40,800 nucleotides of DNA from Candidatus Woesearchaeota archaeon (GCA_964482665.1 CAYZYW010000004.1:1-40800), one strand, 5' to 3'; shown: positions 5,436-23,081, numbered from the stretch's first letter. The notes: a model not told the origin generated them from the letters alone. Translations and numbers: made by a program.

Positions 5436-7013
5436 TTATAAATATTTCTTTGTTTTTTTAGAATTTTTTTTAAGTTTTGTTTTTTTTACTTTCGTTTCTG
5501 TTTTGTTTTGAATTAAATTTTTTCTAATTACATAATTTGTTGGATTTTTTAATTTCGAACAAAATTGGTCTGGCAAACACACTCCAAGATTTTGATAAAA
5601 CTCTTTACAATTTTGAGGCAATATTGGCTTTCGTCTATAACTCCAATTTAATTGTGAAATTATGTATCCTTTTTTTAATGGAACTTCGTTTTTTTCGTTC
5701 CATTCGTATATTCTTTTTTCAAGTTCAATTTTTTCTAATCCTATTGATCTAAATAAATTTATTAAAACAAATACCGCTCGTTTTTTACCATCGCTAATTC
5801 CTTCTAATATTTTTTTAATACATGGTGGGAAATTTTCATCTTTTAAATTTTCTAATTTTATTTTTGCATAATTTGCAAATTTTCCTGTTGTTTTCTGGAT
5901 GCTTTGCTTTGGCTTGTTTAAGCTATACCAATCCAATGCTCGCATAACAAATTCTTTGGCTTCATTTTCATCTGAATCTGGCATAAAATTTTTTACTTTT
6001 ACATTTAATGCATTTGCGTCTTTAAATTCAAAACCATCTATTTCTTTTGGGTCGATTACTACGCTTGATAATGCTGTTTTTTCATGAAGAGAATATGGCA
6101 TTCTAAATAAATGCCTTGGGGAAACCAGGGCTATATCCAATCCCATTAATTCGAATAGGTCCTCTTGTATGCTTTTTGAAAAATTATCTGGATTCGTTCC
6201 TGAGTTTATTTGACATTGGTTGCATTCTGAATAAGGTATTGACTTTTTTACTTCGAATTTTTTTCTGCAACTTGGACATTTAAATTCTTTTATGTTTTCT
6301 TTTGGAAGTTTTCTTTGTTCTCCAATTTTACAATTTGGACAAAAAAAATCTGTCAAAATAAATTCATCTGCTATATTATTACATCTATTGCATTTTATTC
6401 CTCGTTTTATTTTTACATCCTTAAATTGTTTATCAAAATCTTCAGGTAAATTTTGCTCCATTATTTTTTCAGCTTCAGCTCCCAAATATGCCACGAGTTT
6501 TCTTGGTAAATCTGGGAATAAGTCCTTTGTGTTTTCGCCTGCAATTTGTTTTGGAAAAGCTTTGTATGGAACTATTATATGCCAACCTTTTGAACCTGAG
6601 AATTTTAAACCTATGTTTTCCACTTTATTTTGCTTCAATGCTTGAATTATTGCTTTTGCTGCTAATTTTGAATAATCGAACCATTTGCAATCTATGTCTA
6701 TCAATAGATCCCACCCTGTTCTTAATTTGTCTGATTCTTTGGCTGTCATTCCTGTTTTAATATTCATAGGATCTTTCCATAATTCTTCAGAACAATGCAA
6801 AGAGGTTGCACCATTTTTCACAAATCCTAAAACATCTCCTAAATATTGCAATGAATCTGGTCTTGTTCCGAAACCTTCGAAATATCTTGGTGAAATTTCT
6901 CTATTTTTTGAAAATTTAAAAATTGCCTTTTGAACTTCTGGTTTAGAATAATATAGATGGGTTATTTTTCTTACTCTTTCTTCTCGTATAGATTTTGGCT
7001 TAAAATTTTCCAT
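5436..7013 (-). CDS. priSL: Fused DNA primase small+large subunit (PriS-PriL) with Zn-ribbon insertion
   Basis: PriS motifs GWDLLIDID, FSGSKGWH, RHLFRMPYSLH; PriL-like C-terminus FPPCI...QNC...GVC...FC; insert with four CxxC. Confidence 0.9.
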   Translation of the reverse strand: MENFKPKSIREERVRKITHLYYSKPEVQKAIFKFSKNREISPRYFEGFGTRPDSLQYLGDVLGFVKNGATSLHCSEELWKDPMNIKTGMTAKESDKLRTGWDLLIDIDCKWFDYSKLAAKAIIQALKQNKVENIGLKFSGSKGWHIIVPYKAFPKQIAGENTKDLFPDLPRKLVAYLGAEAEKIMEQNLPEDFDKQFKDVKIKRGIKCNRCNNIADEFILTDFFCPNCKIGEQRKLPKENIKEFKCPSCRKKFEVKKSIPYSECNQCQINSGTNPDNFSKSIQEDLFELMGLDIALVSPRHLFRMPYSLHEKTALSSVVIDPKEIDGFEFKDANALNVKVKNFMPDSDENEAKEFVMRALDWYSLNKPKQSIQKTTGKFANYAKIKLENLKDENFPPCIKKILEGISDGKKRAVFVLINLFRSIGLEKIELEKRIYEWNEKNEVPLKKGYIISQLNWSYRRKPILPQNCKEFYQNLGVCLPDQFCSKLKNPTNYVIRKNLIQNKTETKVKKTKLKKNSKKTKKYL

Positions 7014-7100: not shown

Positions 7101-7826
7101 ATGTTAATTAAATTAGAAAATCCCGTTATATTAACAAAGGCTGTTGAAATTATCTCGGATCTTGTTATGGAAGTTCGATTGAAAGTTAATGAATTTGGGT
7201 TAAGTGTTGTTGCGATGGATCCTGCGAATGTTTCAATGGTTGCGTTTAAATTACCGAAAAGTTCATTTACTCAATTTGAGGCTGAAAGTGAAACATTGGG
7301 TGTTAACTTAGATGATTTGAAAAAGATTTTGAAACGTGGTGGTGCGAAGTCGACTTTAATTTTTGAAAAAAAAGATAACAAATTAGAAATTCAAATTGAA
7401 GATCGAATTCGTCGTAAATTTAGTCTTGGACTTATTGAAATTGACAGTGAAGACAAAAGTATACCTTCTTTAGAATTTAGCTCAGTTGTGAAATTGCAAA
7501 GTGTTGATTTTGTGGATTCGGTTGAGGATTGTAAAATTGTTGCAGATGCATGCTCTTTTATAGTTGAAGATGGAAAATTTGTTATTGAGGCTAAAGGAAT
7601 CAATTCTGCGCGCGCTGAATTTTCAGGCGATGAAGCTGAAATAAAAGCTGAAGATTGTAAAGCACGTTATAGTTTAGAATATTTACAAAAATTTTTGAAA
7701 GCTGCTAAATTAACAGATAAGGTTGTTTTAAATTTTGCAAATGATCACCCCTTAAGATTAGACGTTAAGCCAAAAGGCATGGAGATGAGTTTTATTTTAG
7801 CTCCAAGAGTTGAAACTGATGATTAA
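7101..7826 (+). CDS. pcn: PCNA DNA polymerase sliding clamp
   Basis: AMDPANVSMV, YSLEYL, FILAPRVE motifs; 241 aa. Confidence 0.97.
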   Translation: MLIKLENPVILTKAVEIISDLVMEVRLKVNEFGLSVVAMDPANVSMVAFKLPKSSFTQFEAESETLGVNLDDLKKILKRGGAKSTLIFEKKDNKLEIQIEDRIRRKFSLGLIEIDSEDKSIPSLEFSSVVKLQSVDFVDSVEDCKIVADACSFIVEDGKFVIEAKGINSARAEFSGDEAEIKAEDCKARYSLEYLQKFLKAAKLTDKVVLNFANDHPLRLDVKPKGMEMSFILAPRVETDD

Positions 7827-8174: not shown

Positions 8175-8315
8175 ATGAAGGCTAGAATTTCTGCAACTAT
8201 AGATGAAAAGAATTTGAAATTAATAGATATGTTTTTGAAAAAAGGCTCATATCGTAACAGGTCTCATGTTATAGAAGAAGCAATTAAATTATTTATGAAA
8301 GAAAATGCAAAATAA
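8175..8315 (+). CDS. Ribbon-helix-helix (CopG/MetJ-type) transcriptional regulator, 46 aa (missing from the ORF track)
   Basis: Manual translation MKARISATIDEKNLKLIDMFLKKGSYRNRSHVIEEAIKLFMKENAK: alternating beta-strand, helix, G-Y-x-NRS-x-VI-x-EAI RHH signature; overlaps the next ATG. Confidence 0.85.
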   Translation: MKARISATIDEKNLKLIDMFLKKGSYRNRSHVIEEAIKLFMKENAK

Positions 8316-9084
8316 AGGACAGGTTACAATTTTTATTGTTGTTAGTATTATAGTTGTTGTTGCCACTGGTTTATTTTTTACATTAAAGGGAAATATTTTA
8401 CCCGGAATGGGTACTGATTTTGGTAAAAATCCTGCCGGTTTTTTGAAAAATTGTATTGAAGATCAAGTTGAGGAGGGAATTATTTTAATTTCATCACAAG
8501 GTGGATCTGTAAATCCAGTATTCTATCAACCCTTTCAATTTACTGGTGAAGATTCAGTTAATATTTCATATTTATGTTTTAATAGAAATGATTTCAATCC
8601 TTGTAAAAATCAAATGCCTCTCTTAATGAAACATATGAAGAATGAATTAAAAACTTATGTTTCGGATACGGTTGACGAGTGCATTGATGAACTTAGTGAA
8701 GGTTTAGAAAAAGAAGGGTTTGCTGTCGAAACTCATTACTCTAGAGGTGATTTTGATTTAGACTTTGATCCAAAAAAAGTTTTAATAAATATAAATGCAA
8801 AACTTAATTTAATGAGAACTGATACTCCAACTATTTATGAAAATTTTAATGTTTCAATTCCTAGTAGAATTTACGAATTAGGTAATTTAGCCAGAGAAAT
8901 AGTAAATCAAGAAAGTCAATATTGTCATTTTTCAACTGATGGTTACCACGTTCTTCATCCTCAATATCAAATATCTCGTCATATTACTAATTCTATAAAA
9001 ATTTATACACTTGAATATGAAAATAGTTATGAAAAATTTAGATTCGCTGTAAGGGGGTGTTCTATTCCAGCTGGATTATGGTAA
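8305..9084 (+). CDS. Class III signal peptide (prepilin-like) protein, module 1
   Basis: NKG/QVTIFIVVSIIVVV N-terminus; paralog of 12876-13652 (shared GFL.NC.ED, SSQGGS.NP, YLC, FxFA.R....P.G). Confidence 0.8.
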   Translation: MQNKGQVTIFIVVSIIVVVATGLFFTLKGNILPGMGTDFGKNPAGFLKNCIEDQVEEGIILISSQGGSVNPVFYQPFQFTGEDSVNISYLCFNRNDFNPCKNQMPLLMKHMKNELKTYVSDTVDECIDELSEGLEKEGFAVETHYSRGDFDLDFDPKKVLININAKLNLMRTDTPTIYENFNVSIPSRIYELGNLAREIVNQESQYCHFSTDGYHVLHPQYQISRHITNSIKIYTLEYENSYEKFRFAVRGCSIPAGLW

Positions 9085-12000
9085 ATAAAAATAATTTAAT
9101 ATTTTTTATGTGCATATTTTCTATTTCTTTAATGATGAATTTTGCAGTTGCTCAAAGTTATTTTATAGATCAATCTAACGATCCAAATAATAATATAAAA
9201 ATAGATATACCCGAAAAAAGTTTTGAAAAATTGATTGGAAATTTTTTAATTAGCTTTTTTAATATAAAACAAATTGGAATTGTTTCTGCTGAAGTGAATG
9301 CAGAAATAAATGATGAAATCGTCTGCTGCCCTAAGCTTCTTAATGGTGAAATATGTCAAGAAATAACATTATCTAAAAAAAATATTTGTGAAACATCAAT
9401 TATCCCTACCATCTGTGAAAATGTTGATGACTGTAGACTTGGCTGCTGCATTGATGAAAGTACAGGTGAACCTTCTAAAAATTCTCCACAGTTAACATGC
9501 ACCTCACAAGGTGGAAAATGGTTTGATGATCCAATGTGCAACATTGATGAGGCAATTAAGGGATGCTGTGTTCTTGAAGAAAAGGGTTATTCTGAACTTT
9601 TAAACAAAAAGCGATGTGAGATTTTGTCTTTAAAAGAAGGGGTTGAGGTTGATTTTAGAAATGGATTCTTAGAGCCTGAGTGTATTGATTTACTTAAATC
9701 TGAACAACGAGGTGCATGTATTATTGATAACATGTGCTCAATAACCTATAAAGATTCATGTAATGGTAGATTTGAAGAAGGATTTTTGTGTTCACATGAA
9801 AAAATTGGATTATGTAAACCTCAAGAAACAATTAGTTGTGCATCTGAAAATGAAAGAAATTCACTTCATGGAATATATTGGTTTGATAGCTGTGGTAATA
9901 GAGAAAATATATATGATTCAGATAAAACAAAAAGTTTTAATGATGGAAAAATCCTAGAAGAAATCCAAAGTTGTAATGATGGAAATGGTAATATAAATTC
10001 AAAAACATGTGGAAATTGCCACGTTAATGCAGAAAGTATATGTTCTTTTAAAAAAGATGGAGTAAAAGATGGAGATTATGTATGTAAAGATTTAGGATGT
10101 TATGATACAAATAATGCTGTTCTTAAAGATTTTAATGATATGTATGGATACTATCCTGCAAATGGGGAATCATGGTGCATATATGAATTTCCAATAATAG
10201 ATACACAATCAACTGTTGGTAGCGAACACTGGAGAGCGTCATGTGCGAATGGGATTGTTAATATAGAAACTGCAGGCGAACATCGTGAAAAAATTTGTGC
10301 ACAAAGTATGGCAGAAAGGCCTGATGGTAGCAAGTTTGTTGAAGCAACTAATCTAGTAAATGATTGGTCAAGTTGCTTAAGTTATAATGAAGAAGATGAT
10401 ATGGTAGAAAAATGTGAAAAAAATAGATTTTGTACTTTAAATCATGTTAATGTTGATGTTGCATTTGCATTTAGTACATGTGTTCCCAAATATCCAATAG
10501 GACTTGACCTGAAAGGTGATATAGAATCAGATATTGTTAAAAACGAAGAACTTTGCTCGATGGCAAATCGTCAATGTATAATTAAACAAAAGAGGGACAA
10601 TATACATGGAGACTGGGGATTTAAAGAAAATGAAGGATGTACTCGTTGGGAATTTATAGAAGAAATGAATGATTTATGTACATCAATGGGGGATTGTGGA
10701 ACTTATATAAATTATAAAGGAGAAGGTACTGATAATATAGATGTGTGGGGAAGTGATGGTTCAGTTGGTGGTTTAATTCTTGGACATCTTTCTCGTTTTC
10801 ATTCAGACTTATACTCTGGACGTGTTAAAAACCTTGCTATTCCTCGTGGCACAAATAAAGAAAAATATATTACTTTAAATGGTGCTAATGAAGACTTGTT
10901 TGAAGTTCTTGGTTTTGGAAAAGACTATAAGGATTTTTCTCAAAAAGAAGTTTTAGCATATACATCCGGAGCAGTTGGGGCGCTTGGAATGTTGTCTACG
11001 GGGTCTGTTACATATCTTGGGACGAGTGCTGGGTTCGCTGGGTTCGGAGTTGCTGCAATTGGTGCTGGAATTGGAATGGGCTTATCTTTAATGTTAAATA
11101 ATTTATTAGACATGGAAAATGAAGGAGCAATTATAGCGATAATAGGGATGACTACTGCTGGACTTGGTTTTGGTATGCTAGCTGGAAATCTACTTGGATC
11201 CATGGGAGCTATTGCCGCTTCAAATGCATGGAATCCTGTTGGATGGGCATTTGCGATAGCTGGTACCATTACTGCAATTCTAGCATATACTATAAAATGG
11301 GGTCAAACAAGAGAGCTTACAATGAATTTTGAATGTTACCCCTGGCAACCTCCTGAAGGCAAACAGGATTGTAATGCTTGTGATGATGATCCTAAGTTTC
11401 CATGTAATAAATACAAATGTGAAAGTATCGGTTTAAACTGCGTTCTGCTTGGTGATGATGAATTAGAAAATCCAACTTGTGAATATGTGCCTCTAGAAAA
11501 TAAAGCTCCTATCATATCTCCTGGAAATATTGATACGGAAGGATATGTATTCAAAGAAACAGAAAATGGTGTTGACGTAATTAATACAATGAGAGAAGAT
11601 GGACGCATTCAAGAATATACGCCTGTTAAATTTACATTAAAAACAGATGAGTATACAATGTGTCGATTTGATACAGATAATAGCGCAACAGATTTTGATG
11701 CCATGGATCAAACATTAGGTCAACATGGATACCGGAAAGAACATTATATTGAATTTAATATGCCACCAATAAATGTTCTTGGATTAGCTGAGAAAGAAGT
11801 GACGGAATTAATGGAAACTTATTATGCTAATTTCAAACTCTATGTTAGATGTAAAGATTATAATGGAAATCCATCAGGTGGTTCATATATTGTAGGTGCT
11901 AAAATTAATTCAGGTCCCGATGAAAAAGCAGTTAGTCATACATCTACTAAATTCAATCCTGAATCTAAATCATTTTTAGAATATGATGTAGAAACTTTAG

Positions 12001-12851
12001 AAATGACAATGTGGACAAATGAACCTGCAACATGTAAATATAGTAATGAGTCTGGAGTGGATTATGAAAATATGCTTGGAGAAATGTCCTGCAATACAAA
12101 TTTTATGACAGATTATAATAAAAATAATGGTGGGTGGCCATGTAGTACAACATTGAATAATCTTAACTTAGAAGAAAATAAAATTTATATAAAATGTAAA
12201 GATAATTCAGATAATGTAAATAAAGATGATTACGAGTATATACTATATACTTCAAACTCTGAATTAACAATTGAATCAATTAAGCTTGAAGTGTTTAATG
12301 GTGATGATAAAGTTTTATCTGATAATGGATATGATTTCGAAATTGGTGGATTATTACGTTATATTGATGTTCTTTCTATTGTTAAAACATCTGGTGGGGC
12401 AAAAAATGGAGAATCGATTTGCTGGTGGGGAGATGATTATAAAATTAAATTTCTTGATAAAGAAGGACGTGAAGATAAAACAACTAATACCCAAATGCTT
12501 TCAAATAAGCGTCAAGGTAACTATAATTTTCCAATAAAATGCATAGATGATGCTGGAAACTTTGTAGAAGATGTTATTAAATTTGAAATTGTTTCTGATA
12601 GTACTGCTCCCGAAATTATTAGAGTATATTCTTCTGGAAATCAATTAACATTTGTAACAGATGAAACATCCCAATGTTTTTACAATACTTCGAAATGGAC
12701 CGATTTTAATATTCAATCTTCTACTGTATTTTCAAAAACACATAATATTCAAACAGAAAGTGATGAAACATATTATATTAAATGTAAGGACGTTTGGGGG
12801 AAAAGTAATGATGGCGAATATGCTATTATTGTAAAGCAATCTCCTGATTAA
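9078..12851 (+). CDS. Giant Cys-rich secreted protein (A+B fusion) with internal Gly/Ala hydrophobic segment and C-terminal Ig-like repeats
   Basis: 1257 aa from ATG 9078; signal peptide; N-half paralogous to 13649-15283, C-half to 15280-17439; repeated YVRCKD/IKCKD..GN motifs. Confidence 0.85.
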   Translation: MVNKNNLIFFMCIFSISLMMNFAVAQSYFIDQSNDPNNNIKIDIPEKSFEKLIGNFLISFFNIKQIGIVSAEVNAEINDEIVCCPKLLNGEICQEITLSKKNICETSIIPTICENVDDCRLGCCIDESTGEPSKNSPQLTCTSQGGKWFDDPMCNIDEAIKGCCVLEEKGYSELLNKKRCEILSLKEGVEVDFRNGFLEPECIDLLKSEQRGACIIDNMCSITYKDSCNGRFEEGFLCSHEKIGLCKPQETISCASENERNSLHGIYWFDSCGNRENIYDSDKTKSFNDGKILEEIQSCNDGNGNINSKTCGNCHVNAESICSFKKDGVKDGDYVCKDLGCYDTNNAVLKDFNDMYGYYPANGESWCIYEFPIIDTQSTVGSEHWRASCANGIVNIETAGEHREKICAQSMAERPDGSKFVEATNLVNDWSSCLSYNEEDDMVEKCEKNRFCTLNHVNVDVAFAFSTCVPKYPIGLDLKGDIESDIVKNEELCSMANRQCIIKQKRDNIHGDWGFKENEGCTRWEFIEEMNDLCTSMGDCGTYINYKGEGTDNIDVWGSDGSVGGLILGHLSRFHSDLYSGRVKNLAIPRGTNKEKYITLNGANEDLFEVLGFGKDYKDFSQKEVLAYTSGAVGALGMLSTGSVTYLGTSAGFAGFGVAAIGAGIGMGLSLMLNNLLDMENEGAIIAIIGMTTAGLGFGMLAGNLLGSMGAIAASNAWNPVGWAFAIAGTITAILAYTIKWGQTRELTMNFECYPWQPPEGKQDCNACDDDPKFPCNKYKCESIGLNCVLLGDDELENPTCEYVPLENKAPIISPGNIDTEGYVFKETENGVDVINTMREDGRIQEYTPVKFTLKTDEYTMCRFDTDNSATDFDAMDQTLGQHGYRKEHYIEFNMPPINVLGLAEKEVTELMETYYANFKLYVRCKDYNGNPSGGSYIVGAKINSGPDEKAVSHTSTKFNPESKSFLEYDVETLEMTMWTNEPATCKYSNESGVDYENMLGEMSCNTNFMTDYNKNNGGWPCSTTLNNLNLEENKIYIKCKDNSDNVNKDDYEYILYTSNSELTIESIKLEVFNGDDKVLSDNGYDFEIGGLLRYIDVLSIVKTSGGAKNGESICWWGDDYKIKFLDKEGREDKTTNTQMLSNKRQGNYNFPIKCIDDAGNFVEDVIKFEIVSDSTAPEIIRVYSSGNQLTFVTDETSQCFYNTSKWTDFNIQSSTVFSKTHNIQTESDETYYIKCKDVWGKSNDGEYAIIVKQSPD

Positions 12852-12875
12852 ATTTATAAACTTAAAAAACATAAA

Positions 12876-13652
12876 ATGAGTATGCAAAAAAAGGGTGAAC
12901 GAGGACAAGTAACTATTTTTATTATAGTCGCGATGGTCATTGTTGCTGTTGGTATTTTAGTTTCACTTTTATATCCTAAATTTTATACAGGTTTTAATTT
13001 TGAGGCTGAAAACCCTGAAGGATTTTTACAAAATTGTTTAGAAGATGAAATGGCAAATGCTGTTACACTTTTATCTTCTCAAGGAGGTAGTTTAAATCCG
13101 GCACATTATTTTACACACAATAAAGATAAATTAGAATATCTTTGTTATACAAATAAATATTATACGCCATGTATGATACAACAGCCAGCATTAGCTACAC
13201 ATATTGAATCTGAAATTTTACGCGCAATTGAAGATAAAAAAAATGAATGTATTAAATCCCTAGAAGATGCTTACAAGAAAAAAGGATACAAGGTGTCTTT
13301 TAAGTCAGGTGAATTTAATATTGAACTTCTACCAAAAAGGATTGTTGCAACAATCAATGACGAATTAACTTTAACAAAAAAAGAAACAAAAAAATATGAA
13401 TCGTTTAATATTATTTTGAATAACAATCTTTATGAACTAACTTCTATTGCAAATAGTATTTTAAATTGGGAGGCGAAACTTGGAGATTCAGACACGACAA
13501 GATATATGACATATTATCGTGATTTAAAAGTTGAAAAGAAAAAACAATCAGATGGTACAACTGTTTATATTCTGACAGATAGGAATGATAAAAAATCATT
13601 TAAGTTTGCAACAAGAAGTTTGGCTTTACCTCCAGGATATATAAAAATATGA
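12876..13652 (+). CDS. Class III signal peptide (prepilin-like) protein, module 2
   Basis: ERG/QVTIFIIVAMVIV; paralog of 8305-9084; own TATA box (TTTATAAA ~12854-12861). Confidence 0.8.
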   Translation: MSMQKKGERGQVTIFIIVAMVIVAVGILVSLLYPKFYTGFNFEAENPEGFLQNCLEDEMANAVTLLSSQGGSLNPAHYFTHNKDKLEYLCYTNKYYTPCMIQQPALATHIESEILRAIEDKKNECIKSLEDAYKKKGYKVSFKSGEFNIELLPKRIVATINDELTLTKKETKKYESFNIILNNNLYELTSIANSILNWEAKLGDSDTTRYMTYYRDLKVEKKKQSDGTTVYILTDRNDKKSFKFATRSLALPPGYIKI

Positions 13653-15283
13653 GAAAAATAAATTTAATATTAATTTTAGGAATTTTACTAATTGGGGGTG
13701 TGCTTGCATCTGAAACTTCATATTGTTGCGAAAGATTGGTTGGGAATGATGGAACTACGCCTGGTTCATGGTGTCAAGATGCGGAAAGGGATCAATGTGC
13801 TGAAGGTTTTCAAAGTGTTCCAACATCATGTGAGGCTACAAGTTTTTGTAAAGGTGGTACGTGTATTGATATATCGAATGGGGGATGTAGAGAAAATGTT
13901 GGAGAGGCTGCATGTTTAGATTCAGATGATAGTATATGGGACAATAGAGATTCCTCAGAAGTACCTCAATGTCAATTAGGATGTTGTTTAATTGGTGATC
14001 AAGCTGCATTCACAACACATCCAGGATGTAAAAAAATTGGATCTGATTATGGAACTGATCTTATATTTAGGCCAGACATAACAAGCGAAATTGAATGCCT
14101 TGCTAATGCTAAACCTAACGTTAGAGGTGCATGTGTTTTTGAAAAAGAATTTGAAAGAACATGCAGAATGGTAACAAAAAAAGAATGTCAAGATATGGAA
14201 ATTGGTATAGAAAGTTCTAATACTAAATTTCATGAAGGAGTTTTATGTACAGCTAACGATTTAAATACAAATTGTGCTCGAACAGAAAGAACAACGTGCG
14301 TAGAGGGAAAAGATGAGATTTATTATTTAGACACATGTGGTAATACAGCAAATGTATATGATTCTACAAAACATAGTGGGACAGATGAATATTGGGACAA
14401 AATTCAATATACTGATTGTGATCCAGCAATTACTCCTAAAACATGTGGGAATTGTAATTATTTAGATGGGAGTGTCTGTGGCAAAGCTAGTATTTTAAAT
14501 CAACCTGAACATGGTGGAAATATATGTAAAGATTTGGATTGCACGTGGAAAGGTGAACCTAAAGAACATGGAGAAAGTTGGTGCGCAGATTCATCTGGGA
14601 CTTCTTCAATTAAGCTTAATGAAGATAATTTAAATATTAATCCTCGTGATATTATTAATGTAGAAGAAAATCTTCCAGGAAGTCGATATACTCGATTAGT
14701 GTGTTATAATGGGGAAGTTATGGCTGAACCATGTGATGATTTTAGACAACAAATTTGTGTAGAAACTGAGGTTGAAGGACAATCTGGTGAAAAGTTTACA
14801 TTTGCTGGATGTAGAATTAATATATGGCAGGATTGTGTACATCAGATAAATGAAAAAGATTGTACGAATACAGATAGAAGGGATTGTAGATGGATAGAAA
14901 TACCTGGATATGTATCGTGTACTCCGCTTTTTTCACCTGGTTATAATTTTTGGGAAATAGAAGATGAAGGTAATTTATTATGCGGATTAGCTTCTGAAAC
15001 ATGTGTTGTTAAATATAAGAAAAGTATATGGAATGCTAATGGACTTAAGGATTGGACATGTATTGAAAATTGTCATTGTGCAGATCCAAGTTGGCCTATT
15101 TCCATGAATAATTTATGTACTTCATTAGGCGATTGTGGATCCAAAGGAAATTATAAAACAAGTGAGCTTGGCTACGATCCTAAAAGTAAGAAACCAAAAG
15201 ATAGATATTTTCATATAACTGATTTATTTTGGGAAGGTTATGGTGGTCCGGCAGATAGATCAGAAGGGAGTGATAAAGAATGA
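13649..15283 (+). CDS. Cys-rich secreted protein (A part)
   Basis: Sec signal peptide; IYYLDTCGN, CKDLDC, GESWC, LCTSLGDCG motifs shared with the N-half of 9078-12851; ATGA overlap. Confidence 0.82.
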   Translation: MRKINLILILGILLIGGVLASETSYCCERLVGNDGTTPGSWCQDAERDQCAEGFQSVPTSCEATSFCKGGTCIDISNGGCRENVGEAACLDSDDSIWDNRDSSEVPQCQLGCCLIGDQAAFTTHPGCKKIGSDYGTDLIFRPDITSEIECLANAKPNVRGACVFEKEFERTCRMVTKKECQDMEIGIESSNTKFHEGVLCTANDLNTNCARTERTTCVEGKDEIYYLDTCGNTANVYDSTKHSGTDEYWDKIQYTDCDPAITPKTCGNCNYLDGSVCGKASILNQPEHGGNICKDLDCTWKGEPKEHGESWCADSSGTSSIKLNEDNLNINPRDIINVEENLPGSRYTRLVCYNGEVMAEPCDDFRQQICVETEVEGQSGEKFTFAGCRINIWQDCVHQINEKDCTNTDRRDCRWIEIPGYVSCTPLFSPGYNFWEIEDEGNLLCGLASETCVVKYKKSIWNANGLKDWTCIENCHCADPSWPISMNNLCTSLGDCGSKGNYKTSELGYDPKSKKPKDRYFHITDLFWEGYGGPADRSEGSDKE

Positions 15284-17439
15284 ATAATAAAGGATTGATG
15301 GCGTTAACTCAAATTTTTGTATTACTAATTGGGATTATTGCAATTTCATATGCTATTGGAGGTGGAATTGGAGTTGTTAGTGGGAGTACTATGGCAGATG
15401 ATGAAATAGATGAAGTTTTAAATGTGGACGATGATGATATTTTTGGAATGATACAATATGATAAAGATGTGGCATCGGCAACAAACCCCACAGAAACAAT
15501 TGGAATGCCTGATGTTTTACCAAAAGGGGAAATAAAGAATACCAATAAAAAATCTTCTAAAACAGAAGATAAAAAAGGTGGGCTATTCGCTGGAATGGGA
15601 GCAACTATGTCTTCGCTTGTTCTAGGATTAACAATTACAGCAGGGCTTTTAGCTATTGTAAATGTATTAAGATTTATTCCAGACGTTGAAGGTGAATCTA
15701 ATTGGATAGATGCTGCAAGTGCTGCTATTGGTGCTGGTGGTACTGTTGGTTCGCTTATAACCTCTCTTTTGGTCGAAGGAGATGTGGCTGGCGATGTATC
15801 CAAGCTTGCTGGTGGTGGAATTGGTGCCCTAATAGGAATTGCTGTATTTGTTATGGTTTTAAAATTTGAACATCAAAAAATATACAACTTTGATTGTCAG
15901 CCATGGGATGCTCCCGTAGGTGGAAATAATTGTGATTTATGTAATCAAGATGATTTATTAGGGTGTTCAGAATATCAATGTAGAAGCTTGGGTCAAGCGT
16001 GTCAATTAGTAAACTCTGAAGATTCGGGTGAGGCAATGTGTGTATGGGTGCATCGAGATGATCATGTTCCTCCTCAAATTACATCGTGGGCAAACATTCT
16101 AACTGAAGATTATGAATATACTCCAAATACTGCCATTGCACTTCCAGATGAAGGTGTTAAAATTATCTCAAAAGACCAGTCAGATGGTAATGAGTGTGTA
16201 TCTCCTTTTGAACCTATTGAGTTTGGAATAATATTAAATGAACCTGCAAAATGTAAAATGAGTGTTGAGCTTCTAGATATTCCAGAAGGTTTTGAAAAAA
16301 TGCCATTATTCTTTGGTGGAACATCATTATCAAAAATGAATCATTCTCAAATAATTAGTATCCCGAGTAGAGAAGCTCTTGAATCTGAAAATATTACATT
16401 AAAAACAGGAGATCAAGATTTAGATATATACGTGCGATGCCAAGATGCGAATGGCAATTCAAATGAGGCAAATTATGTATTTAGCTTCTGTGTTGACGAC
16501 GCTCCCGATGTAACGCCCCCAAGGATTATGAGATCAAGTATTCCTGATGGATCTCCGTTCTCATTCAATCAAACAAAATTAGATATTGCAATATATGTTA
16601 ATGAGCCTGCATCGTGTAAATGGGATATCTCTGACAAGAGTTATGATCAAATGGAAAATAATCTTAAATGTGAAAAAGATCTAAGCGATATGGATAAAAA
16701 AATGACACTTCCATGTACTGGGACATTAGATGGATTAAAAGATTTTTCAGTTGAAACACCTTTTTACTTTAGATGTAATGATACAAGCGGTAATGCAAAT
16801 ACTGAATCATTTAAAATTGGATTAATCGGATCACAACCTTTAGTAATAAAATCAATTGAACCCGAAGGAACACGTAAAGACTCATCCTCTTCCGTTAGAG
16901 TTCAGTTAGAAGTTGAAACATCAGCAGGTTACGATTCAGGTAAAGCTCATTGTCAATATTCAGAATCATGCACAGAAATAGGTGGATCAAAAACATCGTG
17001 GACAAGTTTCGAATATAGTGATGCGTTTTCAACACACCTACATGAAGCTTTAATTTCTGCATCTAGTGGAAAATATGAATGTGCAATTAGATGTTCGGAT
17101 TTTGCAGGAAATGCGGATGTTTCATACACAAATTATACTATTGAAACAGACAGAGAGGCTCCAATTGTTGTTAGAGCTTATTATGACGATAATAAATATT
17201 TAAAACTGATAACAAATGAAGAGGCAGAATGTGTGTATCATACAAAAGATTGTGATTATCCTTTTGCAGATGGAGTAAAAATGACAACTCACAATAGTGT
17301 CAATCATGTAGTTGAATGGAAAACTGATACATTTTATTATGTTAAATGTAAAGATATTTACTCAAGGGAACCAACCCCTCAAAATGTATGTAGTATTATT
17401 GTTAAACCTTTTACAGCTCCAGAGCCTGAAGAAGAATGA
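15280..17439 (+). CDS. Cys-rich protein (B part) with prepilin-like N-terminus, Gly/Ala hydrophobic segments and Ig-like repeats
   Basis: NKG/LMALTQIFVLLIG; FDCQPWDAPVG, YVRCQDANGN, NEPASCKW, YYVKCKD shared with the C-half of 9078-12851. Confidence 0.82.
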   Translation: MNNKGLMALTQIFVLLIGIIAISYAIGGGIGVVSGSTMADDEIDEVLNVDDDDIFGMIQYDKDVASATNPTETIGMPDVLPKGEIKNTNKKSSKTEDKKGGLFAGMGATMSSLVLGLTITAGLLAIVNVLRFIPDVEGESNWIDAASAAIGAGGTVGSLITSLLVEGDVAGDVSKLAGGGIGALIGIAVFVMVLKFEHQKIYNFDCQPWDAPVGGNNCDLCNQDDLLGCSEYQCRSLGQACQLVNSEDSGEAMCVWVHRDDHVPPQITSWANILTEDYEYTPNTAIALPDEGVKIISKDQSDGNECVSPFEPIEFGIILNEPAKCKMSVELLDIPEGFEKMPLFFGGTSLSKMNHSQIISIPSREALESENITLKTGDQDLDIYVRCQDANGNSNEANYVFSFCVDDAPDVTPPRIMRSSIPDGSPFSFNQTKLDIAIYVNEPASCKWDISDKSYDQMENNLKCEKDLSDMDKKMTLPCTGTLDGLKDFSVETPFYFRCNDTSGNANTESFKIGLIGSQPLVIKSIEPEGTRKDSSSSVRVQLEVETSAGYDSGKAHCQYSESCTEIGGSKTSWTSFEYSDAFSTHLHEALISASSGKYECAIRCSDFAGNADVSYTNYTIETDREAPIVVRAYYDDNKYLKLITNEEAECVYHTKDCDYPFADGVKMTTHNSVNHVVEWKTDTFYYVKCKDIYSREPTPQNVCSIIVKPFTAPEPEEE

Positions 17440-17933
17440 ATAATTCAAGAGGTCAACTAAAACTCTCTTTTGGAATGATTTTTTCTATTATTTTAATTAT
17501 TGCATTTATGACTTTTGCATTTTATGCAATCAAAATGTTTTTAGGAATTCAATGTGGGGTCTTAACTGGAAGCTTTGTGAAAGATCTTCAAAGTGACGTT
17601 GATAATATCTGGAGTGGTCATGGAGAATCGCGTCCTATAACATACAATGTTTGTAAAAAAATAAAAAAGGTTTGTTTTGCGGATTGTGAAAGATCTTCAG
17701 GTAGAATGTCTGATGATTTTGAAGATATGTGTTGGAATGGACTTAATGGTGAAAATTTATTCTTCTATCCTTTTGAATCATCTGGCTCTCTAAAAAGCAT
17801 CAAAATAGAACATATAAATCTAGATTCGATGATCAAATCAAAAAATCCTTTTTGTATTGACGTTCAAGATGGAAAATTAGAATTAACTATAAGCAAATCT
17901 TTTGGTGAAAATTTTGTTTTAATTAGTGAATAA
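17436..17933 (+). CDS. Pilin-like protein (class III signal peptide)
   Basis: SRG/QLKLSFGMIFSIILII; Cys-containing head domain. Confidence 0.78.
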   Translation: MNNSRGQLKLSFGMIFSIILIIAFMTFAFYAIKMFLGIQCGVLTGSFVKDLQSDVDNIWSGHGESRPITYNVCKKIKKVCFADCERSSGRMSDDFEDMCWNGLNGENLFFYPFESSGSLKSIKIEHINLDSMIKSKNPFCIDVQDGKLELTISKSFGENFVLISE

Positions 17934-17963
17934 TTTTAAAAGCAACAGATTCTTTTATTTAAT

Positions 17964-18917
17964 ATGAAAAAATTGGTGATTAATAGACGCGGTGCGTTGG
18001 AAATTTCTTTTTCATGGATTTTTGCAATTATTGTTGGAATTTTTATTTTATTTTTAGCTATCTTTGCTGTTACTAAAATTATGAAAACTGAAGAAACTAT
18101 TAGTGACGTTAAAGTTGGAAAAGAAATAGGTGCATTGTTAAATCTTTTAGAAACCGGCGTAGAATCGGATAAAACAAAATCATTTGATGTTCCCGCCGAA
18201 TCACGAATTCTTAATCGTTGTCATGAGGAAGGTTTGTTTGGGGATCAAGGTATTATGATTTCTCAAAAAAGTTTTAATAAATGGACGGAACCTGAAATTG
18301 AATCTCTATTTAAAAATAAATATATATTTTCAAATAGAATCGAGGAAGGTAAAACATTCTATTTATTTTCTAAGCCATTTGAATTCCCATTTAAGGTTTC
18401 AGACTTGGTCTATATGAGTTCAAGTTTAACAAACTATTGTTTCAAGGGACTTAAGGGATCTAGTGGATTAAAAGATATTGAAAATGATATTGAAAAACTA
18501 AGTCAAGGAAATTTACATCTTGAAGAATCTGAAGAAAAATGTCCTGACAATAGTATTAATGTTTGCTTTAATGTTGCATCAGATTGTGATATTGTTGTGA
18601 ATTATGATGGAGGATACACTAAAAAAGATGGAGAGACGCTTTATTTTGTTAATGATGCTCTGATGTATGCAACGATATTTTCAAATAAAGATATATATGA
18701 ATGTCAAGTAAAAAGATTGATGAAACGAGCCAAGTCATTAGCAGAAATTTATTCAAGTAAAGAAGTTTTTACAACTAGGGTTGGGTGTGGTTCAAATGTT
18801 GGTCTTAATTATTTAGCTGGAATGTTCGAAGGTGTAAAAAGTTCAGGTGAACTGTCAAATATACCTATCGACGACGTTAGAATGAAAAATGATGGAATGG
18901 AGTGTCAGCTATGGTAA
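17964..18917 (+). CDS. Pilin-like protein (class III signal peptide)
   Basis: RRG/ALEISFSWIFAIIVG; paired cysteines. Confidence 0.78.
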   Translation: MKKLVINRRGALEISFSWIFAIIVGIFILFLAIFAVTKIMKTEETISDVKVGKEIGALLNLLETGVESDKTKSFDVPAESRILNRCHEEGLFGDQGIMISQKSFNKWTEPEIESLFKNKYIFSNRIEEGKTFYLFSKPFEFPFKVSDLVYMSSSLTNYCFKGLKGSSGLKDIENDIEKLSQGNLHLEESEEKCPDNSINVCFNVASDCDIVVNYDGGYTKKDGETLYFVNDALMYATIFSNKDIYECQVKRLMKRAKSLAEIYSSKEVFTTRVGCGSNVGLNYLAGMFEGVKSSGELSNIPIDDVRMKNDGMECQLW

Positions 18918-19453
18918 AAAGGGGACAATTAAAAATTCAGCAAATGGCATTTATGCTTATAGCTGTAACATTGTTTTTTGTTTTAGCTGGAATGTTCGTT
19001 TTGGTTTTAAAATTTTCAGATTTAAAAAAAACAGCTTTAGGTCTTGAGGATAAAAATGCGATGCTATTGGTTTCAAAATTAGCAAACTCTCCTGAATTTT
19101 CATGCGGAAGTGCATTTGGAACATCTAAAATTAATTGTATTGATAGCGATAAAATTATGATGTTAAAAAACTATGTTCAAAATAATAAAGATTATGAAGA
19201 TCTTTGGGGTGTTGGAAAAATACAAATACGTAAAATATTTCCAAAAGAAGGTGATGGGTTGACAGATATTGAATGTGAGGGTAATTATCCAAACTGCAAT
19301 CTTATAACTATTTTTGAAAAAAATGTAGCGCTTGGATCTGAGCAATCAACATATGTAACATTATGCAGAAAAGAAGTTGATGAAGGCTATATATTTTCAA
19401 AATGCGAAATCGCATTATTATTTGTATATCCGGAGGATAGAACAAATGAATAA
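18911..19453 (+). CDS. Pilin-like protein (class III signal peptide)
   Basis: KRG/QLKIQQMAFMLIAV from ATG 18911. Confidence 0.78.
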   Translation: MVKRGQLKIQQMAFMLIAVTLFFVLAGMFVLVLKFSDLKKTALGLEDKNAMLLVSKLANSPEFSCGSAFGTSKINCIDSDKIMMLKNYVQNNKDYEDLWGVGKIQIRKIFPKEGDGLTDIECEGNYPNCNLITIFEKNVALGSEQSTYVTLCRKEVDEGYIFSKCEIALLFVYPEDRTNE

Positions 19454-19952
19454 AAATATTTTAAAATTTTCTGGGTTGCGAAAAAATAAAAAAGGGCAAG
19501 AAGAAATGGTTGGATTTGGTTTAATAATTATTATTGTAGCTGTTATTCTTTTGGTTTTATTAAGTCTTTCAATGAGCGGTCGGGATAAAGAGATTATTAA
19601 TAGCTATGAAATTTCGAGTTTTTTGACATCGATGTCATGGTATACAACAGAATGTAAAACTCACTTAGAATTACAGCCTGTTTCTAAATTAATTTCAGAT
19701 TGTTATCAAAATAAAATGTGTCTCGACGAGAAATCTGCTTGCGACATTTTAAATTCAACTATTAAAAATATTTTAGATGCAAGTTGGTCAGCTGGTGAAA
19801 ATTTTGCTGTCAAGGGTTATAGATTAAGAATGTCTTCTGGCGACGAAGAATCTTTTTTAATATTCGAAGAAGGTAATGTTACATCGTCGATTAAAACTGG
19901 ATATATTCCAGCCACAAATAATATTGATATTCATTTTAGCGTTTATTATTAA
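19446..19952 (+). CDS. Pilin-like protein (class III signal peptide)
   Basis: KKG/QEEMVGFGLIIIIV from ATG 19446. Confidence 0.78.
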   Translation: MNKNILKFSGLRKNKKGQEEMVGFGLIIIIVAVILLVLLSLSMSGRDKEIINSYEISSFLTSMSWYTTECKTHLELQPVSKLISDCYQNKMCLDEKSACDILNSTIKNILDASWSAGENFAVKGYRLRMSSGDEESFLIFEEGNVTSSIKTGYIPATNNIDIHFSVYY

Positions 19953-20308
19953 ATTTTTATATTTATAATCATTGTATCAACAATAATTTCTGGTCTATGT
20001 CTTATTCTATTTTTTGTTTTCTCCTCGACAAATTCAATAAAACCAAATCTTTCTAAAAGTTTAAGGTCATCATTTACGGATTTAAAACCTCGACCTAGAA
20101 TTTTCGCTAATTCATAAATTGATTTTGGTTTTTGATTTTTTATCGTATGTATAATTCTTGCTTTCTCGTTGCTGAGAAGTTGTCTTAAAGAAAGAAGTCC
20201 ATCGAAATTATAATCTTTTTTTTTCGGAGGTGATTTTTTAAATAATGAAAAAGCTCCTTTGGATTCTATTATCGTTATCTCTCGTGTTTTTATTATCTTT
20301 TTTGCCAT
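19949..20308 (-). CDS. Winged-HTH transcriptional regulator
   Basis: LLSNEKARII...PKSIYELAKILGRGFKSVNDDLKLLERFGFI wHTH pattern. Confidence 0.85.
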   Translation of the reverse strand: MAKKIIKTREITIIESKGAFSLFKKSPPKKKDYNFDGLLSLRQLLSNEKARIIHTIKNQKPKSIYELAKILGRGFKSVNDDLKLLERFGFIEFVEEKTKNRIRHRPEIIVDTMIINIKI

Positions 20309-20702: not shown

Positions 20703-23081
20703 ATGAGATTTAATTTTAAAAAAATCTCAGCAATCGTAACTAGTGCGTTAATGACTGTTTCAGGTATTGGATTCGCAGCTGCTGCAAATTACCCTGCGCC
20801 ATTCGTGGCAAACGGTGCTGCAAATGTTGCCGTTGTTTATGGAGCTAGCGCTGCACAAACAGATTTTGCTCAAGCGGGAAGCATTCAAACTAACTTAGAT
20901 ACTGGTGTTACTGTTACAAGTGGATCAACTGTTATCGATGGTGATTCATGGTCAGTACAAACAACTTCAGATAATTTAGAATTAGGTGAAAGTATATATG
21001 ATGTAGAAAAATACATTGATGAATCTAACTTAGCCCTTCTAACAGATGGGATATTGTCAAACGAAAAAGGAGATGCAAAATATGAGCAATTCTTTTACTT
21101 TGATGATGCATCTTCTTCAAGTGTTGTATACACTGAAGATGATGATAGTAATCTTGGATTATTTTTCAAAATAAGTGATGGCGCAGTAATTGCTAGATAT
21201 GTTATGGATTTTACAACAAATCTTAAGTCCGATATCGAACCTGATACTGAATTATCAGATATAGAAGATAAAGACATTACCTTTTTAGGTAAAACATATA
21301 CAATTACTACTGCAAATAACGGTACAAGTGGTGTAGAGCTTACTTTGATGAGTGGTGCTGAAAAGGCAATTGCTAAAAATGACGAAACTATTAATGTTGG
21401 AGGCAAAGACGTTAGCGTTCTTGTTTCTTCTACAACAGAAGCTCAATTTACTGTAGATGGAGTTACCCTTGATAAAATGAATAAGGGGGAGACAGTTAAA
21501 CTTGCAGACGGTACACATCTTGGTGTTTCGGATATTACATATCAGAATTTCGCCGGAGGTTTAATGCAAGCTACTTTCCATTTAGGTGCTGATAAAATTG
21601 AAATGAACACTGGGTCCACACTGACTGTTAATGGTGAAACTATAGGTGAAGCTGCTGTTACAATAACATCAACTGAAGCTGGATCAGATATTTCTATTTC
21701 AGAAATATCTATTAACATGACTGCTGAAGACGACCTATATGTTCCTGTAAATGGAAAACTTAGTGAAGCTGCTAATCTTGATGAGCCAGAAGTATTGGTT
21801 AGTCAAAATTGGGATATTGTATTCAATGGACTAGCTGAATTTGATTCAGAAGAAATTAGTTTATTACCTTCTAACTCTGACAAACAATACACATTAAACT
21901 TTAATAATTTTAATGGTGATGCTGTTGAGTTGCCTGTGGTTTATGCTACAGCAACTGGACTTAAGGGTGGAGAGTATGATACAGCCGATAAGGATTTATT
22001 AGTTCTTAACGCAAGTGGTACAATTACCGACGAAGATTACTTTGTATTAAATACTGCTAATCCTGCAATATATTCAGATGATGCAAGAAGTTTTGTAGTT
22101 AGATATAGAGGTGCAGATAAGGTTACAGACACTGATCCAAAAGTGACATTTGATATCGCTGGAGTTGAACAAAGTAGAGAAGTATCATTAACTAGTACTG
22201 GAACTTTTGACTTAAAGTTAGGAGGAAGTACATTTAGTTTTGCTAACGCTTCATCTGGAGCAAGCAACAACTTTGATATTACTTTGACAACTGCTCAACT
22301 TGGTTATTCTTCTGTTGCAAATAATGCTGGTTGGTTACAAATGAGAACACAAAATAATGCTCTTATTACTGTAAACAACACAAATGCGTCTCTTGCAACT
22401 TCTAGTTGGATAGTTAAAGTTGACCTTGATGATCAAGATAAGGATGGAGATGATATAAGTTTATCAACTGCTCAGAATGTATTTTCAGTGACACTTTCAA
22501 ATGCTACAAGCACTCTTGAAGTTTCAACTGGATCTGTTACAAGTTCTGGAACGTTCTATACAAATCCAGATAATGATGATGAAACTTTAACAACTACGCT
22601 TTATGGCGCAGATGTATCTGTTTTAGATACTTCAACTGCTCCTGCTAAGATAACAGCTACAATACCGGAATCTATAGTGAATCCAATGGTATATATTACT
22701 TCATCAGAAGCTACTTCAAGTGATGCTTCATCTATGGGTGCGTTACTAGTTCTAGATTCAGACGTTGCTTCAGTTAGTGATAAAAACTTAATTGTTGTTG
22801 GTGGAAGTTGTATAAATACAGCTGCTACTGCTCTATTGGGTGGTGCTTATTGTGGAGATGCGTTTACAGCGGAAACAGGTATTGGTGCAAACCAGTATAT
22901 AATTAAAAGTTATGCTACTTCCGAACTTACAAGTGAACTTGCCCTTTTAGTGGCAGGTTATGAAGCTGCTGAAACTGCTATGGCGACAAGTTACTTGACT
23001 ACGCAAGACGTAGACACAAGCAAGTCGTGGAAAGGAACTAGTGCTGAGACCGCAAGTCAAATTGTTGAGGAAACTGCTTAG
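20703..23081 (+). CDS. S-layer protein
   Basis: Signal peptide, YPAPFV...AVVYG N-motif, C-terminal NLIVVGGSCIN...LLVAG motif of Methanococcus-type S-layers; acidic, T/S/D-rich; strong SD GAAAGGAGG. Confidence 0.88.
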   Translation: MRFNFKKISAIVTSALMTVSGIGFAAAANYPAPFVANGAANVAVVYGASAAQTDFAQAGSIQTNLDTGVTVTSGSTVIDGDSWSVQTTSDNLELGESIYDVEKYIDESNLALLTDGILSNEKGDAKYEQFFYFDDASSSSVVYTEDDDSNLGLFFKISDGAVIARYVMDFTTNLKSDIEPDTELSDIEDKDITFLGKTYTITTANNGTSGVELTLMSGAEKAIAKNDETINVGGKDVSVLVSSTTEAQFTVDGVTLDKMNKGETVKLADGTHLGVSDITYQNFAGGLMQATFHLGADKIEMNTGSTLTVNGETIGEAAVTITSTEAGSDISISEISINMTAEDDLYVPVNGKLSEAANLDEPEVLVSQNWDIVFNGLAEFDSEEISLLPSNSDKQYTLNFNNFNGDAVELPVVYATATGLKGGEYDTADKDLLVLNASGTITDEDYFVLNTANPAIYSDDARSFVVRYRGADKVTDTDPKVTFDIAGVEQSREVSLTSTGTFDLKLGGSTFSFANASSGASNNFDITLTTAQLGYSSVANNAGWLQMRTQNNALITVNNTNASLATSSWIVKVDLDDQDKDGDDISLSTAQNVFSVTLSNATSTLEVSTGSVTSSGTFYTNPDNDDETLTTTLYGADVSVLDTSTAPAKITATIPESIVNPMVYITSSEATSSDASSMGALLVLDSDVASVSDKNLIVVGGSCINTAATALLGGAYCGDAFTAETGIGANQYIIKSYATSELTSELALLVAGYEAAETAMATSYLTTQDVDTSKSWKGTSAETASQIVEETA

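Follow-up and report, generated by a model that had tools for sequence, protein, structure and literature searches.

A conserved cassette of minor-pilin-like and cysteine-rich giant proteins in Pacearchaeota-type DPANN archaea, a candidate surface set of a type IV filament system

A cluster of ten genes in the genome of a tiny and probably host-dependent archaeon assigned to Candidatus Woesearchaeota combines small proteins that resemble the subunits of type IV filaments with very large proteins rich in cysteine (Cys). Throughout this text, the window is the whole stretch of 40,800 nucleotides (nt) that was analyzed, and the cluster occupies positions 8175–19952 of it, on the + strand of contig C4. 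We hold, with somewhat better than even confidence, that the products of this operon are surface-exposed components, outside the core, of a type IV filament system of Pacearchaeota-type DPANN archaea, i.e., an initiation or tip set that comes with a giant adhesin. The cassette is best read as analogous to the bacterial minor pilins and PilY1, although it is not detectably homologous to them.

The open reading frame (ORF) lists of the window contain ten co-oriented + strand ORFs across the cluster, namely g0, P1, AB, P1', A, B, g7, g8, g9, and g10 (Table 1). Seven of the nine gene junctions overlap by 4–16 nt and the remaining two are gaps of 24 and 30 nt, in agreement with the preliminary description of this DNA, which had noticed ten co-oriented and mostly coupled genes. 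The layout recognized there, i.e., a pilin-like gene with a fused A+B gene, then a pilin-like gene with separate A and B genes, and finally four more pilin-like genes, is borne out by pairwise comparison: P1 and P1' are 33% identical (E 9e-52), residues 90–554 of AB are 28% identical to A (E 1e-37), and residues 757–1260 of AB are 26% identical to B (E 4e-43). Each paralog has its own closer ortholog in other genera, for example at the loci L020, L021, L023, L029, L031, and L032; therefore, the duplication is old and both copies have been kept, and AB is, as judged by these comparisons, an old paralog of A plus B. The same observations led us to reject an assembly artifact as the source of the duplication, since the copies are only 26–33% identical and each has its own orthologs elsewhere. 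They also qualify the proposal of two variant adhesin or effector modules: the adhesin part is in keeping with the immunoglobulin (Ig)-like domains described below, but the modules are old paralogs maintained across genera and not fast-varying copies.

The three large proteins had been singled out for their Cys content, and rightly so, as Cys makes up 4.5, 7.9, and 3.2% of AB, A, and B, respectively, versus 1.28% in the ORFs of this genome with at least 200 amino acids (aa). Almost all Cys columns are shared by at least 90% of 63–138 relatives, and on this pattern all three proteins presumably contain disulfides. AB and B share a second trait, namely three Gly-rich hydrophobic helices located between the A head and the B stalk (residues 599–682 of the homolog P0125, discussed below); the fused P1-A-B proteins found in other families lack them. 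Database searches yielded little for these proteins. Only 3 of the 120 listed AB relatives have a precomputed Pfam entry, all three to Ig-like families; B has a weak match to DUF4625 in the Pfam scan; and neither a vWA nor a lectin module was found in A and B by the Pfam scan or in the annotation of the relatives. A search of the AB profile against the PDB returned AopB alone, at E 0.18 and in the hydrophobic region, which is treated as chance or low complexity. In a collection of 5.8 billion proteins, all relatives are labeled "hypothetical" and come from Pacearchaeota or Nanoarchaeota records.

The evidence that the small proteins are pilin-like begins with their N-termini. P1, P1', and g7 to g10 all start with a short basic stretch that ends in K/R-G; Q comes next (A in the case of g8), and then some 20 hydrophobic residues. 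Among the orthologs, the motif [KR][GAS] stands directly before the hydrophobic core in 30 of 31 sequences for P1, 19 of 20 for g7, 20 of 21 for g8, 19 of 21 for g9, and 16 of 17 for g10, and Gln occupies position +1 in 27, 15, 17, and 16 of those with a leader for P1, g7, g9, and g10, respectively. Conserved to this extent across the alignments of orthologs, the motif is beyond chance. The pilins of Methanococcus maripaludis likewise have a leader ending in Gly, with Gln at +1, along with Glu at +5 (PMC3875500); in the cluster, Glu is found at +2 and +3 of g10 and at +3 of g8. Profile comparison with hhalign indicates that g7 is paralogous to the N-terminal 80 residues of g8 (97% probability), and that the other pairs of families match each other in the N-terminal segment only. 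P1 gave nothing significant when its profile was searched against PDB sequences (best E 0.18). Two of its relatives bear the name YceG in Joint Genome Institute records, an identity that we rejected: only 5 of 31 members match the Pfam YceG family, with a best E of 0.0069, and we take this as a match to the N-terminal membrane segment.

The second line of evidence is conservation. A search with P1' returned 1155 relatives at E ≤ 0.001 among 1495 candidates, and the P1 profile matches 285 of the 301 genomes sampled from the phylum, all from the same class or closer, with 1–9 matches each (two of the 285, G303 and G304, have not been published, and no other result depends on them). With the g8 profile, matches were obtained in 126 of 151 genomes, and B was found in 56 of 61 related genomes, including all 36 within the same family. 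In 16 loci the recurring order is either that of the window, with a ribbon-helix-helix (RHH) gene followed by P1-AB-P1'-A-B-g7-g8-g9-g10, or a single P1-A-B unit and then g7 to g10. Both these 16 loci and 20 further ones were drawn from matches to the B protein; g8 follows B in 7 of the 16, g8 and g9 accompany B in 13 of the 20, and most of the other loci among these 20 end at a contig edge.

The same arrangement is seen at greater distance. Ten loci around g8 were picked for their long contigs in other families, with their content not known beforehand, and in all ten a giant ORF of 929–2170 aa with 20–118 Cys lies directly upstream. The four profiles of g7 to g10 match in order in nine of them, g7 being undetected in L083. 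In at least six of the ten, the row runs on into further small genes with leaders, some of which encode proteins of 95–120 aa with weak similarity (E 2e-5 to 4e-4) to a 117-aa product of contig C8 in our genome. The giants themselves differ between lineages, and four of the five scanned carry CarboxypepD_reg, Big_13, fn3, TSP3, SdrD_B, or SpaA-type domains. One locus, L081 (G172:C1:396000-415000), reads P1 - AB - g7 - g8 - AB2 - two ORFs - g9 - g10, with a second giant gene inserted amid the four pilin-like genes.

The relationship between P1 and the giants is further illuminated by fusions. Loci were picked for a P1 match within an open frame of at least 880 aa (about 16 of the 150 matches listed), and the 11 long P1-bearing ORFs (1084–1305 aa) examined at ten of them all match the A-domain and B-domain profiles as well, which means that long P1-bearing ORFs hold A and B and not that all P1 genes are fused. 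In these proteins, P1 stands at the N-terminus and is followed by the C-terminal half of A and then by B, with 44–50 Cys in the four inspected, and no hydrophobic segment occurs besides the N-terminal one. Because they are fused in other families, as in the 1173-aa protein of L066:6027-9548, P1, A, and B can be regarded as one unit that is split in this lineage. A third P1-domain protein, of 630 aa, is encoded on contig C17 (L042:1293-3185); its first 200 residues contain the P1 domain, about 430 more are without a Pfam match, and similar forms of about 610–660 aa recur in many genomes of the class. Taken together, the sequence comparisons indicate that the cluster is a cassette conserved through the sampled class and not a local oddity, and the synteny check suggested at the outset consequently shows nothing peculiar to this organism.

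Structure predictions provide the third line of evidence. The AlphaFold2 model of g9, built from a 21-row alignment, has a predicted local distance difference test (pLDDT) score of 88.5 and opens with a helix of 59 residues (3–61), which is followed by a loop with two short helices and by strands at 104–113, 134–139, 148–160, and 163–178. A long N-terminal helix succeeded by a four-stranded sheet is the element order of a type IV pilin, and from topology alone g9 is predicted to have the pilin layout. Together with the conserved class III-type leaders, this model upholds the initial view of the small proteins as pilin-like. In the ESM Atlas, the models of P1' and g8 are confident. That of P1' (predicted template modeling score, pTM, 0.77) has no look-alike, with template modeling (TM) scores of at most 0.29 outside its own family. 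That of g8 (pTM 0.81) has no secure outside neighbor; its weak ones include a cluster of GspI pseudopilins (TM 0.29 by query and 0.52 by target) and archaeal DUF7266, a likeness that we treat as a lead only.

Regarding the association of these subunits, a complex was predicted from four chains, i.e., the globular parts of g7, g9, and g10 with g8 as the scored partner, after the hydrophobic helices had been cut. The interface between g8 and g9 obtained interaction prediction scores from aligned errors (ipSAE) of 0.82, 0.81, and 0.80, versus 0.00 for the best of three controls, and the runs agree in at least 90% of the contacts, with a partner pLDDT of 82. The ipSAE mark is reached by 58 of 80 solved complexes and by 2 of 110 mismatched pairs, although this calibration is rough here, as custom alignments and four chains were used. 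On the basis of this model, g8 and g9 are predicted to bind each other; the four-chain prediction reported no confident contacts for g7 or g10.

For the giants, the AlphaFold2 model of P0125, an AB homolog 38% identical to the AB of the window, has a pLDDT of 82.8. It displays a confident, mixed alpha/beta, Cys-rich A domain (30–540) and a disordered linker, then the three hydrophobic helices (pLDDT 61–80), and finally an all-beta B domain. The top Foldseek matches of the B domain are adhesion molecules with Ig/Fn3 domains in tandem, SiiE, GhpA, and also an S-layer protein, with E down to 1.7e-12 and TM by query of at most 0.15, a value that is low as expected for multi-domain chains. The top viral matches of P0125 are phage tip-attachment proteins, and its A domain is covered by none of the Foldseek matches listed. 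Judged by these predictions, the large proteins resemble adhesins in which Ig-like domains stand in tandem.

The genome, which amounts to 617 kb in 44 contigs and is 86.5% complete, also possesses the machinery that such a system would need, located away from the cassette. A Pfam profile search gave no match to T2SSE, T2SSF, or Peptidase_A24 on C4, and the original remark that the window holds no assembly ATPase, TadC, or prepilin peptidase is thus correct. On other contigs, there are three matches to T2SSE (C2, C33, and C7) and two to T2SSF (C19 and C10), all above the Pfam cut-offs, as well as a single A24 peptidase gene on C8 (277 aa, Pfam E 1.4e-13), and hence the type IV assembly genes, whose absence would have spoken against a filament, are present in the genome. 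This scattering matches a 2026 survey, which describes the dispersal of type IV filament genes as the rule among DPANN archaea (PMC13705601). As the A24 peptidase is present in 147 of 151 sampled genomes, its co-occurrence with the cassette is uninformative and was dropped as evidence.

Some of these contigs hold further pilin-like genes. On C8, six co-oriented small genes (L041: 850-3676) encode proteins of 108–222 aa with leaders of the MNK[KR]G type, and they are followed by the 117-aa pilin-like gene (KKG|Q; 5028-5381) and by the A24 peptidase gene (5575-6408). Since similar small genes follow g10 directly in other families, the C8 genes may represent this system's second half in a detached position. 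On C2, a T2SSE ATPase of 519 aa stands beside four small pilin genes (L037: 6802-8361 and 9031-11003, - strand), three of which have weak Pilin_N matches, so that this is a second and more conventional pilin set. The two TadC-type genes, on C19 and C10, stand alone.

Table 1. Genes of the cluster and its neighbors in the window
Feature	Position	Strand	Product and remarks
Primase-like ORF	5436-7013	-	525 aa; sub-cut-off matches to the small and large DNA primase subunit families; resembles a fused primase
PCNA gene	7101-7826		follows the primase-like ORF
g0	8175-8315	+	46 aa; ribbon-helix-helix-like; heads the operon; 11-nt overlap with P1
P1	8305-9084	+	259 aa; pilin-like; leader MQNKG|Q, then a hydrophobic helix and a globular domain that has conserved Cys; AB is its partner
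AB	9057-12851	+	1264 aa, 57 Cys; fused giant; likely start M8 at 9078, giving a Sec-like signal; Cys-rich A domain, three hydrophobic Gly-rich helices (~658-746), B domain of Ig-like repeats
P1'	12876-13652	+	258 aa; P1 paralog; leader ...ERG|Q; goes with the separate A and B genes
A	13649-15283	+	544 aa, 43 Cys; secreted, Cys-rich, Sec-like signal, no anchor
B	15280-17439	+	719 aa, 23 Cys; N-terminal hydrophobic leader KG|L, class III status doubtful; then acidic linker, three hydrophobic helices (106-199), Cys-rich module, four Ig-like domains
g7	17436-17933	+	165 aa; minor-pilin-like; leader RG|Q
g8	17964-18917	+	317 aa; large, minor-pilin-like; leader RRG|A
g9	18902-19453	+	183 aa; minor-pilin-like; leader KRG|Q
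g10	19446-19952 (likely)	+	~168 aa; minor-pilin-like; leader KKG|QEEM; longest ORF 19377-19952, 191 aa
HVO_A0114-family regulator	19949-20308	-	small regulator (E 6.6e-18); converges on the cluster end, overlaps the g10 end by 4 nt
S-layer-like protein	20703-23081		792 aa (S_layer_C E 4.3e-8); 750 nt downstream of g10
Ig-like ORF	26041-27699	-	552 aa; Ig-like FixG_C match E 9.2e-7, weak NPCBM_assoc; probably another surface protein

The start of g10 given in Table 1 is the likely one because its orthologs align from about residue 24 of the longest ORF. The first gene, g0, which the preliminary description left uncharacterized, sets a limit to the designation given there of the whole as a surface gene cluster, for its product is ribbon-helix-helix-like and not a surface protein. 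Residues 4–40 of its 46 match Pfam RHH_1 at E 0.0012, with 19.1 bits against a cut-off of 20.5, and family scans add weak matches to the N-terminal part of NikR and ParD. Orthologs of g0 head the cluster in 3 of the 16 loci (L017, L020, and L031), and the protein is a probable transcriptional regulator. The flanks consist of the primase-like gene, PCNA, the small HVO_A0114-family regulator, and the S-layer gene, a context that is chromosomal rather than that of an island. A mobile or viral island was rejected on account of these flanks, of the even GC content across the window, and of the synteny in dozens of relatives. The data sets listed as containing this DNA comprise nine of DNA, all labeled salt lake metagenome and one of them perhaps its source, and none of RNA.

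In the reading that we favor, g7 to g10 would be four minor-pilin-like subunits whose short [KR]-[GA] leaders are removed by the single A24 prepilin peptidase of the genome. Through their N-terminal helices and globular domains, they would assemble into a low-copy initiation or tip complex, which would include a g8-g9 heterodimer. P1 and P1' would represent a fifth kind of pilin-like protein and serve as the "foot" of the Cys-rich ectodomain, be it AB or A plus B, tying the giant to the g7 to g10 set covalently in the relatives and by association here. The giant would consist of a disulfide-stabilized A head and of a B stalk of Ig-like domains, and would bind a surface, most plausibly that of a host cell. 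Assembly would be driven by the ATPase and by the TadC platform, whose genes lie on other contigs, and g0 would regulate the operon. We infer leader cleavage, filament formation, the position at the tip, the contact of P1 with A and B in this genome, and the bound target. Host attachment would be the obvious use in such an organism, and published work reports appendages resembling pili that extend into hosts, as well as Pacearchaeota strongly attached to hosts (PMC7906910).

Several observations weigh against this reading, and they are given here and in the following paragraphs along with the rivals that they favor; all of the structural evidence, moreover, consists of predictions. The hydrophobic helices of AB and B may anchor the giant in the cell's own membrane and not on a fiber tip. 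Two or four crossings would leave it anchored there, which would suit a fixed surface complex better, and an odd number would put the Cys-rich, Ig-like B part in the cytoplasm, an outcome that conflicts with the helix-free fused relatives. The near-universal presence of the cassette would also suit a structural part of the envelope. In addition, no ATPase, TadC, or peptidase gene adjoins the cassette in the window or in the ten distant 19-kb loci, as searched by phmmer with the proteins of this genome at E ≤ 1e-5.

These points lead to the strongest rival, a fixed complex of the cell envelope instead of a fiber, in which the pilin-like proteins would stay in the membrane and hold the giant A/B as a permanent spike or scaffold. 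They would form a short pseudopilus or simply be subunits anchored by their N-termini, as the substrate-binding proteins in the Sulfolobus bindosome are. The three hydrophobic helices in AB and B would then signify anchoring in the cell's own membrane, the cassette would be near-universal in the sampled class in the manner of a core envelope part, and the missing assembly genes next to it would come as no surprise; the S-layer gene is only 750 nt away, and proteins outside filaments are known to carry class III signals (PMC3047682). An internal anchor is not general, however, as the fused P1-A-B proteins manage without any internal hydrophobic segment. Furthermore, the distant loci that continue into small pilin-like genes, at least six of ten, include some of 95–120 aa that resemble major pilins, and four conserved minor-pilin-like genes in a fixed order are a hallmark of filament initiation sets (PMC13533445). 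We consider the envelope complex unlikely on the whole, and it retains what credit we give it mainly because of the three hydrophobic helices. The minor-pilin or tip complex envisaged in the preliminary description accordingly stands in part: the predicted g8-g9 binding and the machinery genes elsewhere in the genome agree with it, while the helices of A/B argue against a place at the tip of a fiber.

Appreciably less probable is a pilus for the uptake of DNA or nutrients, of the competence type, with g7 to g10 as Com minor pilins and the giant capturing a substrate for a nucleotide-auxotrophic organism. Four minor pilins accompany the Com pilus of Gram-positive bacteria (PMC8727766), type IV pili drive DNA uptake in the ultrasmall Patescibacteria (PMC10633639), and the present genome, at its 617 kb and 86.5% completeness, is small. 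Nevertheless, the giant is built of Ig-like domains of the adhesion type, and nothing that was found speaks for DNA binding specifically. A DNA-binding domain, a ComEC-like channel, or a nuclease was not seen in the cluster, although no search was aimed at them.

A further group of adverse observations bears on whether the leaders are those of pilins at all. The Glu at +5 of Methanococcus and bacterial pilins is missing, and this position is F, S, Q, and V in P1, g7, g9, and g10 of the window, respectively. The Pfam family Class_IIIsignal (PF04021, DUF361) has no match anywhere in the genome at E ≤ 1, Pilin_N (PF07790) has none on the contig of the cluster but only on C2, and the Pfam and NCBIfam scans gave no significant match for any of the nine proteins beyond g0. 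Similarly, a Foldseek search of the g9 model against the PDB produced 572 matches at E ≤ 10 and none at E ≤ 0.001, with no pilin among the 50 listed. As for the seven class III signal peptides originally counted, the literal motif, K/R-G with Q, A, or L after it and then a hydrophobic stretch, is indeed present in all seven ORFs named, but that of B is doubtful: a canonical [KR]G occurs in only 4 of the 12 N-termini of B-only orthologs inspected, and in AB proteins the equivalent segment resembles a Sec signal that has an A-x-S|Y site and, in its helix, a conserved Gln/Glu. For these two reasons, it is doubtful that B is a pilin.

One could suppose that the leaders serve as ordinary signal anchors or as Sec signals, and that the cluster encodes unrelated secreted or anchored Cys-rich proteins with no link to a type IV filament. 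The Sec-like signals of AB and A, the failure of the pilin hidden Markov models, and the lack of a solved pilin among the Foldseek matches listed for g9 speak for this view. We find it improbable, since [KR]-[GAS]-Q is strictly conserved directly before the helix in five separate families whose N-terminal segments match each other by hhalign, the g9 model has its 59-residue N-terminal helix, and a prepilin peptidase occurs in nearly all the genomes sampled for it (147 of 151).

Least probable of all, in our estimate, is a bolder version of the adhesin idea, in which the Gly-rich helices are a latent insertion element and not an anchor in the cell's own membrane: the giant, carried outward by its pilin-like foot and the g7 to g10 complex, would bind the host via A and drive the helices into the host membrane. 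The three hydrophobic helices are the only observation that points to it, and the membrane-penetrating appendage of the preliminary description finds no other support. If true, it would amount to a physical bridge, akin to a translocon or a fusion loop, through which a DPANN cell taps its host, and genetics would gain its first hold on the "pili that enter the host" observed by cryo-transmission electron microscopy (PMC7906910).

Returning to the initiation or tip set that we prefer, its closest counterparts in function and layout are the tip complexes of bacterial type IV pili, as well as of type II secretion systems, i.e., PilI-J-K, FimU-PilVWX, and GspHIJK, together with PilC/PilY1. As in these systems, the minor-pilin genes come in a fixed order and share an operon with the gene for a protein of some 1000 aa or more that is not a pilin. 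One subunit, g8 with its 317 aa, is much larger than the other minor pilins, as GspK/PilK is, and the heterodimer predicted for g8 and g9 has parallels in the PilI-PilJ and PilK-PilC pairs described in PMC13533445. The proteins of the cassette, however, have no sequence match and no significant structural match to GspH/I/J/K, PilV/W/X, or PilY1/PilC, the weak GspI neighbor of g8 being all that was found. The giant of the cassette has a Cys-rich head and Ig-like domains, and is not a PilY1-type protein; the cassette is also set apart by a fifth pilin-like protein, P1, which is dedicated to the giant and forms a single chain with it in relatives, and by the hydrophobic helices inside AB and B.

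A second group for comparison is that of the modular pilins (PMC8179133, PMC13533445). TadG/CpaL of the Tad pili and PilB/PilC of Streptococcus sanguinis unite a leader, a helix, and a large adhesion-type body in one chain, as do the fused relatives of our cassette. In the window, on the other hand, the foot P1 and the body A/B are encoded by separate genes, and the body has at least 1000 aa and about 45–57 Cys, with no vWA or lectin module found. By the type of leader, which is short, ends in Gly, and is followed by Gln at +1, the nearest counterparts are the Epd pili (system 1) of Methanococcus maripaludis, whose pilin genes likewise lie apart from those of the ATPase and platform. System 1 pilins are reported for 1990 DPANN genomes (PMC13705601). 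Unlike Epd pilins, those considered here lack the Glu at +5, and the genome has no Class_IIIsignal (DUF361) match; for its part, the Epd system has no giant Cys-rich partner in the descriptions covered. The Sulfolobus bindosome, finally, shares with the cassette the presence of class III-type leaders on proteins that may stay at the cell surface, but the cluster contains no substrate-binding-protein domains and no genes for ATP-binding cassette transporters.

As the tests of sequence and structure fail, membership in the tip-complex, modular-pilin, or Epd families fails as well, and we file the cassette as a type IV filament accessory set that is made from unrelated families and equipped with a dedicated foot protein and a Cys-rich giant. 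The early impression that it matches no characterized system has held, in that the Pfam, NCBIfam, and PDB sequence searches found no described family. Likewise, no description of the cassette was found in the literature, including a term search of a Nanobdellota preprint; the supplements of PMC13705601, which lay outside the search, may include some of its small genes among candidate pilins.

Pacearchaeota, Woesearchaeota, and related lineages occur in abundance, have not been cultured, and are presumed to live in attachment to hosts, and reviews of archaeal type IV filaments refer to such pilin genes as "scattered" and of unclear function (PMC13705601). For most of the sampled genomes of this class, a concrete set can now be defined, comprising the foot P1, a lineage-variable, Cys-rich giant with Ig-like domains, and four ordered minor-pilin-like proteins, and it offers clear targets for antibodies, proteomics, cryo-electron tomography, and heterologous cleavage and assembly work. 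If our reading is true, the cassette would be an archaeal counterpart of the bacterial initiation complex of minor pilins and PilY1, arrived at with unrelated sequences, and its variable giant would be a natural candidate for a determinant of host range.

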